Below, one piece after another: positions 1,026 through 10,551 of a stretch of DNA of 55,695 bases (its first letter is position 1; each line of letters opens with the position of its first letter). Both the position numbers and the translations under genes were made by a program. The stretch is taken from the NCBI GenBank assembly GCA_035714205.1, contig DASTMJ010000205.1, forward strand, positions 1 through 55,695, written 5' to 3'. Under the pieces are notes generated by a model. That model worked only from the letters and a program-made list of their open reading frames with translations. It ran no database searches and was not told the DNA's origin. The DNA is from Flavisolibacter sp. GTDB taxonomy: Bacteria > Bacteroidota > Bacteroidia > Chitinophagales > Chitinophagaceae.

Positions 1026-2921
1026 TCAGTTATTTGCAGGCAAGCCTATAATAACAGTAGTTCCTTTATCTAATTTGCTGATTATCCTGATTGTGCCGTT
1101 TAAAAGATTTACGTATTTCTTTACAATATGTAAGCCCAGGCCTGTTCCCTGGATATTCTGAGCATTTGTTGCCCTGTAAAAACTTTCGAATAAATGTTTT
1201 TGATCTATCCTGCTAATACCTATTCCCCTGTCCTTTATTTTTATCAGGACCTTTTTCTGTTCTACAAATGTTGTAATTGAGATCTTTTTGTTTTCCTGCG
1301 AAAATTTAATAGCATTAACAATTAAATTGAGAAGGATGGTTTTTAGTAATTTTTTATCCTGTTCTATTACTGTAAGACCCTCATGGACATACCGCAGTAT
1401 CTGACCTTTTTTTAAGAGGGGGTTTAGTTCTTCCGTTATGTTGGTTATCAAGTCTTTTATATTAAAGCGGGTACTATGAACAACTGCTTTGCCCTCTTCC
1501 AGTTTACCAAGTGAAAGGAAATCATCAAGCAATGTATTCATGTGGTAAACGGCTTCTTTGATCCTGCTCAGGTGGCGGTTTTTATGTGCATCAATTATGT
1601 CCGCCATATATTTTTCAAGTAAATAAAGGGAAGATAGAATAGTGCTGAGTGGTGTTCTGAACTCATGTGAAGCCATAGAAACAAACCGGCTCTTCATTTC
1701 GTTTAGCTGGTGTTCTTTTTCCAGGGATTTCTTTAAATGTTTTTCGGAAAGCTGTAGTTGCCTCAGGCTTTGCGTTAGTGATTGTTTTAACAAAGTTTCT
1801 TCCGTTATATCAATTGCCCATCCGCCAACATAAAATTTGCCTTCTGATAAAATGGGAAATTTTATAATCTGGTAACTATGCTCCTGCCCATCCGGGGTAA
1901 CTCCTTTTTCTATGGTACGCAAGATCTTGGTGCTGGCTCGCACCAACTTGTCGTGTTCAATATACGATTCAGCAAAATGTGATGGGAAAACGTCGGCAAG
2001 GTGTTTCCCAATATCTGTTTTTTTCAGCTTGAAGGTTTTTGCATACGAAGGGTTTATATAGTTCAATGTACCATCTTCACCGGTTATCCATGATAAAATA
2101 GGGCTGTTATCCATAAAGGTTTCAAAAAGCTTTTTGCTTCGGTAAAGAAGTTCATTTAGCTGCTCTATCGATTTTTGAGGTGTGATGTCCCTAACCAGGC
2201 AGCATGCATGCGTGATAAAGCCTTCCGAATTCTTTACTGGGAAATAGCTTGCCTGTATCCAGATATTTTTGTTTTTTACCTTAATCTCTAACTGATAAGT
2301 ACATTTTTGTCCGCTGAGTGCAGTTTGGAAACACTCCCTGATTTGCTCTTTTCGGTGTTGGGGTAATTTTGAGATCACATTATCGCCGGATTTATAAGTA
2401 AATCCATATGTTTCTTTGATTTTTTTATTTGCTTTTTCATCGATATGCACCAGTTGCAGATCTTTATTTATTACAAAAAATATGTCATCTACAGAGGAGA
2501 TGATCGATAAAAAGGTTGACAGCTCTGTTTTGGTCTCGTTTAATTCTGTAATATCCCGGTGTACTCCAACGTATCCAATTGTTTTTCCTTTTGGATTTTT
2601 GATAACAGTAACTGAAGCATCGATCAATAATAGTTTTCCTTCATTGGTCAGGAAATGAATATTGCCCTTCCAATATCCTTTTTCCAATAGGTCTGTTCTT
2701 GCTTTTTCTTCGGAGTGAGCAGGGTAAATAAATTTCAAAATGGTATATCCCCTTTTCCCAATAGCTTCTGCAGAGGTGTATCCAAAAATTTCTTCAGCTC
2801 TCCTGTTCCAATATTGTATAATAAAATTCTCATCTGTGGCAACAACTGATTCGTCGATGCTCCTTAACAGGGCGGTCAAATATTCCGAATGAAAAACCGG
2901 TGGATGGCTGGCAATCCTCAT
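1026..2921 (-). CDS. Cytoplasmic multi-PAS sensor histidine kinase
   Basis: Three PAS-like repeats (e.g. YWNRRAEEIFGYTSAEAIGK); H-box SHEFRTPL, N-box NAIKFS, G1 DRGIGI, G2 GTGLGL; no TM segment; ATG 2921 preferred to TTG 2936. Confidence 0.93.
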   Translation of the reverse strand: MRIASHPPVFHSEYLTALLRSIDESVVATDENFIIQYWNRRAEEIFGYTSAEAIGKRGYTILKFIYPAHSEEKARTDLLEKGYWKGNIHFLTNEGKLLLIDASVTVIKNPKGKTIGYVGVHRDITELNETKTELSTFLSIISSVDDIFFVINKDLQLVHIDEKANKKIKETYGFTYKSGDNVISKLPQHRKEQIRECFQTALSGQKCTYQLEIKVKNKNIWIQASYFPVKNSEGFITHACCLVRDITPQKSIEQLNELLYRSKKLFETFMDNSPILSWITGEDGTLNYINPSYAKTFKLKKTDIGKHLADVFPSHFAESYIEHDKLVRASTKILRTIEKGVTPDGQEHSYQIIKFPILSEGKFYVGGWAIDITEETLLKQSLTQSLRQLQLSEKHLKKSLEKEHQLNEMKSRFVSMASHEFRTPLSTILSSLYLLEKYMADIIDAHKNRHLSRIKEAVYHMNTLLDDFLSLGKLEEGKAVVHSTRFNIKDLITNITEELNPLLKKGQILRYVHEGLTVIEQDKKLLKTILLNLIVNAIKFSQENKKISITTFVEQKKVLIKIKDRGIGISRIDQKHLFESFYRATNAQNIQGTGLGLHIVKKYVNLLNGTIRIISKLDKGTTVIIGLPANN

Positions 2922-3056
2922 GGTATTGCAAAGCACACGATAAACATTGACTAAAAAAATGAGTTGAGTGGTTCCGGCATTTGATTCTGCTCAGATTTTC
3001 AAAGCCAGAACGTTCTTCCAATAAAAAATTTGAGACTGCTTCCTGTGACCGGATGA

Positions 3057-3121
3057 TGACGATTGTCAGTAGGGTTCATAAGTCTGCTCATTCATTACCT
3101 CCGGGAGTAACCTTAGTTTTA
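3057..3121 (+). promoter_or_regulatory. Tandem Crp/Fnr-like box promoter of the response regulator
   Basis: TGACGATTGTCA (3057-3068), TAAGTCTGCTCA (3079-3090), TAGTTTTA (3114-3121). Confidence 0.72.
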
Positions 3122-3171: not shown

Positions 3172-4227
3172 ATGAAAACCATTCTATTGATTGAGGATAA
3201 CAGGCAAATACGGGATAATGTAACAGAAATTCTTGAACTTTCCCATTACAAAGTCTTTACTGCGGAAAACGGGAAAGAAGGTGTTACCCTGGCCATTTCC
3301 AACCAGCCCGACCTGATTCTTTGTGATATTATGATGCCGGAACTGGATGGTTATGGTGTACTTCATATGTTGCAAAAAAACCCCCAGTTACAGGATACAC
3401 CATTTATTTTTTTAACAGCGAAAACAGAGCAGGCCGATCTACGGAAAGGTATGTCTTTAGGTGCAGATGATTATATCACAAAACCCTTCAATCCCACCGA
3501 CCTGTTGAATGCGGTTGAAAACAGACTTGCGAAATCAGAGGGTTTGAAAAAAAGATTCAAACATAACATACCTGAAGTGACCGGGCCAGATATAAGGCAG
3601 GACGTTGATTCATTAGTTGAGGAGCTTATGAGTGGCCGGCATATCGATATCTATAAAAAAAAGCAGCGTATATACATTGAAGGAAATCATCCCCTGAGAC
3701 TTTATTACGTTAAAAAGGGGAAGGTGAAAATTTACAAAACCAATGAACGAGGTAAAGAATTAATATTAAAGATCATTAACGAAGGTGAGATCTTTGGATA
3801 TACAGCTTTACTTCTTAATTCGCTTTATTCCGATAATGCGGATGCGTTGGAAGATGCGGAAATAGCGACATTACCCAGCAGTGAGTTCCAGGAATTTGTA
3901 CGATCCAATCCCCGGGCTTGTGTAGGATTCACAAAACTTTTGGCAACTGAAATTATAACAAAGGACGAACAGATGATCGGCCTGGCTTTCAACTCGCTAC
4001 GTAAAAAGGTGGCCAACGCCCTGGTAAGTTTGCAAAGCAGGTATACTGACAAAGCACAGCCATTATCGATCAACTTAAGCCGGGAAAACCTGGCTGCTTT
4101 GGCTGGTGCGGCTACTGAATCATTAATAAGAACATTAACCGATTTCAAAGCTGAACACCTCATAGATATCAAAGGTGGAAATATCATAGTCAAAGATTTT
4201 GATAAGCTTGCCAAGATAGCTGATTAA
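3172..4227 (+). CDS. Hybrid response regulator: REC + cNMP-binding + Crp/Fnr HTH
   Basis: REC (LIEDN, DLILCDIMMPELDG, FLTAK, KPF); cNMP fold (LYYVKKGKVKIYK, GEIFG); HTH SRENLAALAGAATESLIRTL. Confidence 0.93.
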   Translation: MKTILLIEDNRQIRDNVTEILELSHYKVFTAENGKEGVTLAISNQPDLILCDIMMPELDGYGVLHMLQKNPQLQDTPFIFLTAKTEQADLRKGMSLGADDYITKPFNPTDLLNAVENRLAKSEGLKKRFKHNIPEVTGPDIRQDVDSLVEELMSGRHIDIYKKKQRIYIEGNHPLRLYYVKKGKVKIYKTNERGKELILKIINEGEIFGYTALLLNSLYSDNADALEDAEIATLPSSEFQEFVRSNPRACVGFTKLLATEIITKDEQMIGLAFNSLRKKVANALVSLQSRYTDKAQPLSINLSRENLAALAGAATESLIRTLTDFKAEHLIDIKGGNIIVKDFDKLAKIAD

Positions 4228-4316
4228 GAGCCATTATTCCGATTTGCGTACACAAGTTTATGACAGAGCTACATAAAATCATCAGTCTAAAATCAAACGA
4301 TTTACAGGCCGCTTAC

Positions 4317-4381
4317 TGACCACAATCATTTGGCTAACCCTTCTCAATCATTGGTTCTTCAGTTAAAGGAAATCAATTTTG
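4317..4381 (+). promoter_or_regulatory. Degenerate tandem-box promoter with no downstream CDS
   Basis: TGACCACAATCA (4317-4328), half box ..CAATCA ending 4350, CAATTTTG at 4374-4381 with the same 23-nt spacer. Confidence 0.55.
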
Positions 4382-4385
4382 GGTC

Positions 4386-4444
4386 TGGTTTTTCATAGGA
4401 TATTGGACTTGCAACGGGCTGGATTTCTATCCAGCCTTCTTTTT
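4386..4444 (+). ncRNA. Candidate ~58-nt sRNA (A)
   Basis: Between the promoter at 4317-4381 and hairpin GGCTGGAT-ttct-ATCCAGCC + TTCTTTTT; 5' seed TTTTTCATAG; 5' end inferred. Confidence 0.45.
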
Positions 4445-4690
4445 ACCCAGGATAGTCGGGAAAAAAAAATACGGTATTCAGGTGAACAAGCTTTTGCATA
4501 TTCAATAAGCTACTTCAAATCGCACCTGTTGATCCAATTCTATTTTATGCTTTTGATGTAGAATGACATGGGGATGTTGGTGTTGTAAAAGAACATCTTT
4601 AATACACTATCATAAGCCTGGGGGAACAATTAGAAAGCAAAAGAAAAATTATTTAAAGAGCCGGATCCTCTGCCTCATTACTGAAGGGTT

Positions 4691-5176
4691 TCATTTTTTA
4701 CGGCTATATATACCCGTAAGTGAGCCGAAGGCCATTATGTTATCGCTCATAGCTTTTTCCACGTCGTTCACGTTTGCCGTGTTTTCAATCTTAAGAATAT
4801 TGTTGAGTGCATATACTTTAAACTGATAACGGTGAGTACCGGTTGGAGGGCAGGGTCCGCCATAACCACGTTTTTTAAAATCATTGATACCCTGTATCCC
4901 GGATTTGTGGCCTTCCCTGATATGGTGGGTTATGGGAATATTCCAGTTCAGCCAATGCAACCAGGTACCACCGGGTGCATCAGGATCGTCAACAATAAGA
5001 ACAAGAGATGCTGCTGCTTCAGGAATATTAGCCAGGTCAAGCGGCGGATTATCATTTGATCCATCGCAGGTATACTTTGCTGGTATACTTTCATTTTCCT
5101 TGAAAGCCGGGCTTGTAACAATGATCATTTTAAAATCTTCCACTTTCGTGGCTTCAAACGATTTTGCAGGGTTCAT
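4691..5176 (-). CDS. YbhB/YbcL family (PEBP/Raf kinase inhibitor-like) protein
   Basis: DDPDAP, WLHW, GINDF, YGGPCPPTGTHRY motifs. Confidence 0.93.
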   Translation of the reverse strand: MNPAKSFEATKVEDFKMIIVTSPAFKENESIPAKYTCDGSNDNPPLDLANIPEAAASLVLIVDDPDAPGGTWLHWLNWNIPITHHIREGHKSGIQGINDFKKRGYGGPCPPTGTHRYQFKVYALNNILKIENTANVNDVEKAMSDNIMAFGSLTGIYSRKK

Positions 5177-6741: not shown

Positions 6742-6805
6742 TGACAACAAATATTAAATGTGCTGACTGATGTCATTACTTAACAACATTTCAAACCTTA
6801 TTTTG
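6742..6805 (+). promoter_or_regulatory. Tandem Crp/Fnr-like box promoter
   Basis: TGACAACAAATA (6742-6753, imperfect), TGACTGATGTCA (6764-6775), TATTTTG at 6799-6805. Confidence 0.6.
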
Positions 6806-6857: not shown

Positions 6858-6995
6858 ATGAAATCTACATCCCATAAACGGAGACCATTAAAATTTGGCA
6901 ACAGGGAAATAAAGCCGGTGGTTGTGTTGACATTCCTTTTTTTAATCCTGCTCTTTATTGCTTTTTATGTTGTGCTGAAAAATCCAGCCCGTTGA
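6858..6995 (+). CDS. Small single-pass membrane protein, 45 aa (not in ORF track)
   Basis: Manual translation MKSTSHKRRPLKFGNREIKPVVVLTFLFLILLFIAFYVVLKNPAR: basic N-terminus and 20-aa hydrophobic helix; follows a tandem-box promoter. Confidence 0.6.
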   Translation: MKSTSHKRRPLKFGNREIKPVVVLTFLFLILLFIAFYVVLKNPAR

Positions 6996-7054
6996 AAACA
7001 GGTTGCATATAACCTGTATAACATTTCATTATTTTATTCAGTAAACGAGAAGCT

Positions 7055-7447
7055 ATGAAACTTTTGCTTGCAACTAAGAAATGTATCAAAGACCTCAATA
7101 GAGAAATTGCAAAAAGATTCCCGAACCTGAAATTGCACTTTTACACCTCTGTAACAAAAGTTGGACCTTCTTTCCATTTTGGATCAAAGATCGCAGACAA
7201 CACTTTGCTTGATAAACTGGTTGAGAACTTTAAGCCTTTAGTTTTAGAAGTACATCCCTGGGATACAGTTGCTTACCTGCAACAGGTATTTGAAAACGAA
7301 TTGGGCTTGTTTGTACAGGTATTTAGAAGATCTGGTAATGACTGGCTGGAAACAAGAGGAACCGAGCACCTTACTCTTGAAACGCAAAATAACATGACCT
7401 ATGAGAATTGGAATTTCCATTTTAATATTAATACCCTCTATTTATAA
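7055..7447 (+). CDS. Hypothetical protein, paralog of 8854-9258
   Basis: Shared motif QVFRxxxxxWxxTxGTxxxTLExQN. Confidence 0.8.
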   Translation: MKLLLATKKCIKDLNREIAKRFPNLKLHFYTSVTKVGPSFHFGSKIADNTLLDKLVENFKPLVLEVHPWDTVAYLQQVFENELGLFVQVFRRSGNDWLETRGTEHLTLETQNNMTYENWNFHFNINTLYL

Positions 7448-8853: not shown

Positions 8854-9258
8854 ATGAAAATCCCGTTAGATCCTTCCACAACGTTAATGGATATTCAGAG
8901 GCAATTCCAGTTGATGTTCCCTTTACTTAGCATTAGATTTTCTGATAAAGAACACCAGTTTGGCGAAGCCATTCTTCATGGTCATTGGCATGATGAGTCA
9001 TTACCATTTCTTTCCATTACCAAAACCCGCTACCGGGACTATATTGAAATTGAAAAGTGGTATAAAACGGGGGATGTAGAACAATTGTTGCAAAAGTTCT
9101 TTGGAGTACATCCGCAGGTATTCAGGAAACAAAACGATTCATGGATTCAAACTGCAGGCACTGATGAATTTACCCTTGAAGAACAAAATGAAATAGCGCA
9201 AAAAAATATACAGGATGAAATGGGCAGCTTCTGGCCAAAAACCGATGCTTTATTGTAA
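8854..9258 (+). CDS. Hypothetical protein, paralog of 7055-7447
   Basis: QVFRKQNDSWIQTAGTDEFTLEEQN aligns with QVFRRSGNDWLETRGTEHLTLETQN. Confidence 0.8.
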   Translation: MKIPLDPSTTLMDIQRQFQLMFPLLSIRFSDKEHQFGEAILHGHWHDESLPFLSITKTRYRDYIEIEKWYKTGDVEQLLQKFFGVHPQVFRKQNDSWIQTAGTDEFTLEEQNEIAQKNIQDEMGSFWPKTDALL

Positions 9259-10179: not shown

Positions 10180-10551
10180 CTATTCTTCATAGATCCATTT
10201 TTTGAAATGAGGTGCCGTTTCCTGGCTTACTATTATTGAGTGGTTGTTGGAACGTAGTGTAAGATTTACTTCCAGTTTTACTTTTTCAAAAGACCTGAAA
10301 CCCTTGATGTAATGTATATTGATCAAATATTTTCGATTGGCCCTGAAAAACAGTGAGGGGTCCAGTTCTTCTTCCAATGCGGAAAGGTTTTTATCGCACA
10401 AGTATTTTTTCTCGTTTTTATCTACTGCAATAATCACAGTATGATCCCTGAATATAAAAGCAATGTCTTCTAGTTTTAATGCGATATTTTCATTGCCCTT
10501 TCTCACAATTAATCTTGTTTTCATTTTTTTCATAGTTTTCAGTCGTTCCAT
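10180..10551 (-). CDS. Stand-alone LytTR DNA-binding domain protein
   Basis: LSALEEELDPSLFFRANRKYLINI..IIVSQETAPHFKKW; in-frame stop just upstream, so no REC domain. Confidence 0.9.
   Translation of the reverse strand: MERLKTMKKMKTRLIVRKGNENIALKLEDIAFIFRDHTVIIAVDKNEKKYLCDKNLSALEEELDPSLFFRANRKYLINIHYIKGFRSFEKVKLEVNLTLRSNNHSIIVSQETAPHFKKWIYEE

Follow-up and report, generated by a model that had tools for sequence, protein, structure and literature searches.

The window, a stretch of 55,695 nt of Flavisolibacter DNA, contains a PAS histidine kinase gene on the minus strand (1026..2936; Pfam PAS, HisKA and HATPase_c), which is divergent from a plus-strand gene encoding a receiver-cNMP-Crp HTH hybrid regulator (REC-Crp, 3172..4227; PF00072, PF00027 and PF13545). 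Between the REC-Crp gene and a convergently oriented PEBP-family gene (4691-5176, minus strand), the plus strand carries a distal Crp/Fnr-like box with a perfect TGA-N6-TCA (4317..4328), a proximal box located 22 bp downstream that keeps only the 3' half-site TCA (4339..4350), and a Bacteroidota-type -7 promoter element CAATTTTG (4374..4381), spaced by 23 nt from the proximal box and by 5 nt from the predicted start. These elements are followed by a predicted 58-nt sRNA gene of a FopS-like Chitinophagaceae family (4387..4444, plus strand), which was delimited by a sharp onset of conservation at 4387 and by the span of BLAST matches, and which scores 66.1 bits with the family model. The predicted RNA starts with GGTTTTTCATAGG (from 4387) and comprises a seed core GTTTTTCATAG (4388..4398), in which the anti-AUG occupies 4394-4396 and which is the same as the R1 core given for FopS and GibS in Supplementary Data 2 of PMC11697453. 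It continues with a second conserved single-stranded block (4399..4409), made up of 2 nt absent from FopS and a TATTGGA block like the FopS extended seed, and ends in an intrinsic terminator (4416..4444) composed of a 9-pair hairpin (4416-4437) and a T tract (4438-4444). A sequence-only reading had described this region as a tandem-box promoter followed within about 35 nt by a hairpin and U-tract. The perfect distal box and the regulon geometry bear out the promoter, although the proximal box is half a site; the hairpin and U-tract are present, but the quoted distance fits the RNA start, ~36 nt from the box end, and not the hairpin, which lies at ~65 nt.

The terminator hairpin is unusually stable for its composition (fold z -4.4 for 4410-4446; 0/200 shuffles as good). 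Since the interval 4227-4416 yielded no terminator, the hairpin at 4416-4437 may also terminate the REC-Crp mRNA of 3172-4227. A scan for E. coli-type promoters is uninformative in Bacteroidota. Rfam gave 0 matches at gathering over the whole window; SorY, ctRNA, L20 leader and snoR20, which appeared at E<=10 within 4200-4700, were far under their cut-offs and were taken as chance. Chance probably also accounts for 18 nt on the minus strand (6980-6997, E 0.46) that match the hairpin. In public runs of closely related strains, which are of low depth and probably of DNA, differences are found at 4462-4472, past the terminator, with no listed change in 4387-4444.

The stretch 4387-4444 is a discrete unit and represents one copy of an element that is conserved and multicopy in Chitinophagaceae. 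With a 161-nt query, matches were obtained in 36/36 genomes of the same genus, mostly several in each and centred on query positions 84/88-145, which correspond to the predicted RNA; no E value better than 0.002 was reached in 24 genomes from the order's other families. Allowing <=1 mismatch, the 20-nt word at the 5' end was matched 391 times, with 135 of 201 family genomes (104 of 151 genera) positive at 1-10 copies each; the reversed control gave 0, and the word was exact in 141 among the 150 matches listed. Conservation of the seed had been set beforehand as a check by the sequence-only reading, and it is borne out by these 135/201 genomes. The Flavisolibacter genome contains about ten copies, nine at E<1e-6 plus weaker ones, according to a covariance model built on 78 copies that include the window copy. 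Six of the nine are of the window type (type I) and three belong to a second type with the same anti-AUG core. The alignments exclude five loci (L052, L084, L112, L139 and L150), which lack a terminator or match by chance. Papers on the Chitinophagaceae family or on the box regulon were not found in a literature search that covered few subscription papers and no bioRxiv supplements.

Several relatives of the unit were observed alongside type I. The second paralogue type (C60:1432-1489, C279:2177-2234, C233:5422-5479 and C74:2158-2217) combines the same anti-AUG core with another following block and a related hairpin, and its copy on C279 stands in tandem with a type I copy. A third seed-sharing unit (L159:1678-1729 on C139, and L191 in G117) follows directly on a gene for an ECF sigma factor and two genes of unknown function, and this gene context is the same in the second genus; it is possibly an envelope-stress sRNA derived from a 3' end. 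Changes in the bases that would pair with codons 2-3 characterize two seed variants (C221:18975-19035 and C369:2539-2594), and in a box-driven copy of G021 (L213:7661) an anti-UUG replaces the anti-AUG. Retargeting or decay are both possible for these variants.

Beyond the family, a model of the 5' sequence matched 68 of 151 class genomes at E<=0.05 (a tally including G479) and 27 of 101 order genomes at E<=0.01. Among the best class loci examined, terminators were present at 7/30 (3 from Chitinophagaceae and 4 of the FopS form) and absent from 23/30; among the best loci examined from the order's other families they were found at 0/20. The best class and order loci examined included no terminator-bearing intermediates between the FopS-type and Chitinophagaceae forms.

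Covariation supports a structured RNA. In a MAFFT alignment that was left unfitted, 99.7% of the inner helix is paired and 28 cells are changed on both sides, counted as sequences and not as independent events; none of 500 shuffles matched this, and slid controls reached 17-47%. The covariation analysis that had been proposed as a check thus came out in favour of the RNA. The outer hairpin pairs covary too, with G-U pairs, and together with the U tract these G-U pairs fix the strand as plus. A terminator is present in 116/124 distinct copies, whereas the invariant 5' end is unpaired and a weak 4-pair 5' helix shows no compensatory change. Identity among the 124 copies climbs from about 0.6 to 0.98 at the first G (4387 here); the invariance downstream of this G is partly imposed by the search pattern, the unbiased figure being that of the 20-nt word. 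An element like YAnnTTTG, which we take to be the -7 consensus, stands exactly 4 nt before the first G in 92/124 copies and 5 nt before it, as here, in 6/124. Transcription presumably starts at 4387.

The same data bear on two simpler descriptions of the element. It could be a dispersed terminator or REP-like repeat cassette that here just ends the 3172-4227 mRNA, as might be expected from its multicopy nature and from the same-strand gene preceding 40/58 copies, many of them at 120-160 nt. This is improbable, given that the unpaired 5' end and not the hairpin is the most conserved part, that the -7 element keeps a fixed distance in 98/124 copies and that copy number is low, at 1-10 per genome. 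Moreover, 18/58 copies, including 4/8 of the box-driven ones described below, have a divergent upstream gene and hence no same-strand gene to terminate, so these are not mere terminators. The element could also serve a small gene on the opposite strand, as its leader or as its antisense partner in a pair resembling type I toxin-antitoxin, or be a short ORF: its minus strand resembles a good start context and a 60-codon TTG frame (4379-4561) crosses the unit. However, antisense frames starting at the ATG of the seed are brief and differ in length (n=121, with a median of 16 codons and a range of 4-76; the one here has 7), linker lengths differ by single bases among copies, and the strand is fixed as plus, which leaves this option largely refuted and very improbable. 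The unit at 4387-4444 therefore likely encodes a 58-nt trans-acting sRNA, as judged from its sequence and that of its relatives. The proposal of a stand-alone sRNA gene of ~58 nt with an anti-start seed is supported by the conserved unit, the covarying terminator, the -7 element and the regulon box promoter; what the sequence-only reading overlooked is that the unit is one paralogue of a multicopy family with FopS/GibS as its known counterpart.

The promoter was then compared with the other tandem boxes of the genome. Pairs of TGA-N6-TCA in intergenic DNA occur 29 times at 22-bp spacing versus about 3 times at other spacings. With a matrix from 30 regulon promoters, the site at 4317-4350 scored 15.2 bits and ranked 62 of 1,386,565 intergenic positions, most ranks above it being training sites of the matrix on either strand; leave-one-out scores of the regulon range from 8 to 32, which places 15.2 bits in the low range. 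The spacer from the proximal box to the -7 element is 23 nt in 18/30 regulon promoters and likewise before the sRNA. As the proximal box keeps just its 3' TCA, the promoter carries a box and a half, not two full boxes. The link between the sRNA family and the box regulon is new, and the box pair has the exact regulon geometry.

Genome-wide the regulon amounts to about 35-45 tandem TGA-N6-TCA sites with 22-bp spacing and 23 nt to the -7 element, and in the window further boxes were located at 955, 3057, 6063, 6742, 7529 and 9463. The pair at 3057 belongs to the REC-Crp gene itself; that at 6742 is weaker and is followed by a long gap before the gene at 7055. The frames 7055-7447 and 8854-9258 encode two similar 130-aa proteins with no Pfam match, look-alikes of which are found behind box promoters in C134, G011 and G021. 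Three REC-Crp paralogues are encoded in the genome.

Among 21 proteins scanned, those of boxed genes include a cytochrome c whose gene precedes nosZ (L286), a radical SAM protein that we label as HemN-like (L281), two Usp and two Hsp20 proteins, and a CBS protein, an MlaE protein, an alcohol dehydrogenase and a phosphorylase. Such a gene set is typical of low oxygen. The boxed nosZ operon, HemN-like, Usp and Hsp20 genes thus make induction of the regulon at low oxygen likely, and the sRNA copy in the window is likely to be induced along with it; that low oxygen is the signal is inferred from this regulon content. REC-Crp is likely the activator of the sRNA copy. Its recognition helix shows the E-x-x-x-R pattern of Crp/Fnr proteins. 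Since the whole protein contains only 2 cysteines, input from a kinase is likelier than an iron-sulphur sensor, and the PAS histidine kinase at 1026..2936 is its likely partner.

To place the box pair in the context of the family, the upstream regions of 123 family copies were scored. Eight copies, including that of the window, reach >=14 bits, seven with the box at 69 nt and one at 70 nt; the other 115 have no box score >=14 at any distance from 34 to 189 nt. The seven other box-driven copies come from five genomes: G029, G011, G166, G322 (three copies) and G021. A homolog search next to REC-Crp genes had been suggested, and it succeeded in part: a copy lies within 1.5 kb downstream at 2/29 other REC-Crp loci (G029 and G011), with box pairs of 21 and 30 bits 69 nt upstream, whereas the remaining loci are without one. 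The G029 and G011 copies were found without a box filter; the other 5/7 were found by patterns fixing the register at 67-71 or 69 nt. Copies with a perfect distal box occur in 2/300 other family genomes (G166 and G322), and copies with a box at the 69-nt register in 3/71 other genomes of the genus. Matches discarded from these searches were 5/10 in the distal-box family search, which are not type I with a box pair and have negative box scores (L191 being the different seed-sharing type), and 2/5 in the 69-nt-register search of the genus, which lie in coding sequence. Six of the seven other box-driven copies are located in islands rich in boxes and regulon genes, and the same kinase/regulator pair flanks the G029 and G322 copies.

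These copies also bear on the possibility that the RNA is a real FopS-like sRNA that is not separately box-activated, being made from a bare -7 promoter, released by cleavage at the 3' end of the regulator's mRNA, or encoded by a decaying island copy. Consistent with this, half of the proximal box is missing, no terminator separates the REC-Crp gene from the hairpin (4227-4416), one FopS member is described as 3'UTR-derived (PMC11697453), and box-driven copies are rare and more often mutated. The 20-nt word is altered in 3/7 of the other box-driven copies versus 0/22 other copies of the same five genomes (p 0.01), G021 being the altered copy that loses the anti-AUG itself; this may reflect relaxed selection, and the class may represent specialisation or decay. 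On the other hand, the promoter shows the exact regulon geometry with 23 nt to the -7 element, the TGA and TCA of the distal box are invariant in 8/8 box-driven copies although the spacers differ, and half of these copies have the divergent upstream genes mentioned above. In addition, an RNA derived from the 3'UTR of the REC-Crp gene would follow the regulon anyway, since that gene is itself preceded by the box pair at 3057. Overall, we regard an RNA that is not separately box-activated as rather unlikely.

Other promoter types were noted upstream of further copies. In loose tests based on what we took as the consensus sequences of sigma-54 and ECF promoters, sigma-54-like motifs were seen at fitting distances in 8/124 copies (e.g. 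L063, L077, L081, L103, L119 and L123) and ECF-like motifs in 6/124 (L044, L057, L076, L085, L111 and L128). Further palindromic motifs recur upstream of copies such as L046, L115 and L137.

For the analysis of possible targets, gene starts were taken from our own gene caller and signal peptides were called with our own heuristic. The commonest start context, TATGAAAAA, is present in 110/3174 genes and is complementary to the seed at every position; ATGAAAAA opens 232/3174 called genes. Signal-peptide-like sequences were called in 57% of the 272 genes that pair over >=10 nt in register, versus 27% overall. Pairing over >=9 nt is found in 5/11 SusC-like genes and in 11/31 boxed genes versus 462/3174 overall (p 0.014 for the SusC-like genes). 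Exported proteins are thereby suggested as a target class from sequence complementarity, with no single targets named. Within the window, the complements over start codons listed earlier were recovered, with 9 nt of Watson-Crick pairing at the BON gene and at the 9580 gene and 10 nt at 10526-10535 (TTTTTCATAG). The accompanying caveat that such matches do not identify targets proved justified: a run of >=9 occurs in 131/3174 genes, and duplex energy places the BON gene 1008th and the 9580 gene 1935th of 3174. When energies of whole 29-nt duplexes were calculated, start regions were not favoured over coding controls (5/30 shuffles as good), and duplex energy was rejected as a means of naming targets because there was no enrichment at start regions. 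A search for sponges in the Flavisolibacter genome revealed no cluster with the strict pattern; a loose pattern gave one 4-site cluster on C276.

The RNA might instead mainly bind a protein, such as an RRM-1 protein or an initiation-related factor, its anti-start appearance being secondary. The lack of energy enrichment at start regions would agree with this, as would the near-invariance of 20 unpaired nt in 104/151 genera, which goes beyond what pairing with many targets appears to need. The genome encodes eight RRM-like proteins, one of which was confirmed as RRM_1; at about 3.3 kb from the family copy C216:711-769, two RRM-type genes stand side by side (C216:4084-4654). In Bacteroides, the protein RbpB is reported to bind the 5' part of FopS RNAs (PMC11697453). 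Against a mainly protein-binding role, the seed exactly complements the commonest start context, most of the top non-family matches that the 5' model gave in other Bacteroidia run antisense to real gene starts, and pairing by FopS was demonstrated with compensatory mutants according to PMC11697453. A main function in protein binding accordingly has a low probability.

Taken together, we favour, with a probability of about 0.63, the reading that the unit encodes a 58-nt FopS-like sRNA that blocks start codons of exported proteins and is switched by REC-Crp at low oxygen. The kinase would phosphorylate REC-Crp, which would bind the boxes next to the -33 region, and RNA polymerase would then start at 4387 and produce the 58-nt RNA, whose hairpin would probably also end the mRNA of the regulator. 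The RNA is predicted to pair over the start codons of MKK/MRK-type messages, mostly of exported proteins, and, by extension from the FopS experiments, ribosomes would be blocked and translation repressed, with RRM-1 proteins modulating its action. Because one seed is found in all paralogues, each apparently behind a different promoter, the window copy would add to the sRNA dose when the box regulon fires, leading to less synthesis of envelope and uptake proteins.

A wider and more tentative possibility, which we consider doubtful, is that in Chitinophagaceae a generic anti-start RNA serves as a dimmer of the secretome, with many same-seed copies each placed under a different regulator and low oxygen as the input of this one. 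The seed mirrors the start context of 7% of genes, mostly for exported proteins, and primary sigma, ECF, sigma-54 and REC-Crp would act as inputs in place of one complex promoter. If so, TonB-dependent and other envelope proteins would be cut when respiration and proton-motive force fall, and signals would be integrated by gene copy number. Different copies seem to stand under different promoters, and the window copy ties the family to a low-oxygen-type regulon with a nosZ operon.

Among known systems, the unit had been likened to FnrS. As in that system, an sRNA would act under a Crp/Fnr-family regulator at low oxygen, which is predicted here, and repress by base pairing (PMC10993149). The analogy would fit this likely input only. 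Escherichia coli FnrS, in contrast, is activated by FNR and ArcA and represses mRNAs of oxidative metabolism (PMC10993149), whereas the regulator in the window combines receiver and Crp parts and has 2 cysteines, the seed is of a generic kind common to about ten paralogues, including copies under other promoters, and the predicted target class would be exported proteins and not a defined set of aerobic enzymes. In the Rfam searches, FnrS was matched neither over the window at gathering nor within 4200-4700 at E<=10. GibS shares the R1 seed start and represents an R1-bearing RNA under its own specialised promoter, but it is a longer RNA that carries R2 as a second seed and is responsive to GlcNAc (PMC11697453); no Rfam match to GibS was obtained at E<=10 in 4200-4700.

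As far as sequence allows a comparison, the closest known system is thus FopS/GibS and not FnrS. FopS is a set of 14 paralogues in Bacteroides thetaiotaomicron, each an sRNA with an unpaired seed at its 5' end and a terminator (PMC11697453). They stop SusC-like genes from being translated by acting at the start codons, and the RRM-1 protein RbpB counteracts them; for FopS-10 the block at the start codon is described in vitro (PMC11697453). The Flavisolibacter family likewise is multicopy, has a single-stranded 5' seed, an intrinsic terminator and a -7 type promoter, and occurs in a genome with RRM-1 proteins. Its 11-nt core GUUUUUCAUAG is identical to the consensus in PMC11697453, and the block after the core is alike in 9/10 positions for the family consensus and 8/10 for the window copy. 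It differs from FopS in 2 extra bases after the core, the lack of the FopS linker block and an unrelated hairpin, and it belongs to a free-living family in another order. FopS copies stand under canonical promoters as described in PMC11697453, whereas the window copy stands under a Crp/Fnr-like box pair. The Rfam model of FopS (RF04319) reached at best 23 bits in the genome, with a gathering cut-off of 56, and the window copy was absent from its 10 matches at E<=10; the same model gave 63-81 bits on B. thetaiotaomicron, G530 and G462 and did not detect G015. Being below the cut-off, the unit is FopS-like and not a FopS member by the curated definition.

A gapped pattern searched in GTDB hit at least 122 stretches, with at least 46 no-gap matches, nearly all labelled Bacteroidales, and at least 80 two-base-gap matches, nearly all of Chitinophagaceae type, 2 being chance. 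Named records with the two-base-gap form are from Chitinophagaceae, e.g. Flavisolibacter, Ferruginibacter, Segetibacter and Puia. FopS-form RNAs were also seen beyond Bacteroidaceae labels (L031, L034, L039, L107 and L147, labelled Muribaculaceae and with a longer linker), and two families outside these labels (G530 and G462) pass the Rfam cut-off for FopS. The two forms may descend from a common ancestor, and complementarity to a consensus start region would also allow convergence. FopS is placed in Bacteroidaceae by PMC11697453, the main text of which contains 'chitinophag' 0 times, and the list in a review (PMC13750123) gives it for B. thetaiotaomicron only. The mode of action of FopS, known from gut Bacteroidales, would reach into a large family of soil and water bacteria for which the literature searched holds no such sRNA, and the box-driven copy offers a testable answer to a question that the FopS work (PMC11697453) leaves open, namely why there are many copies with one seed.
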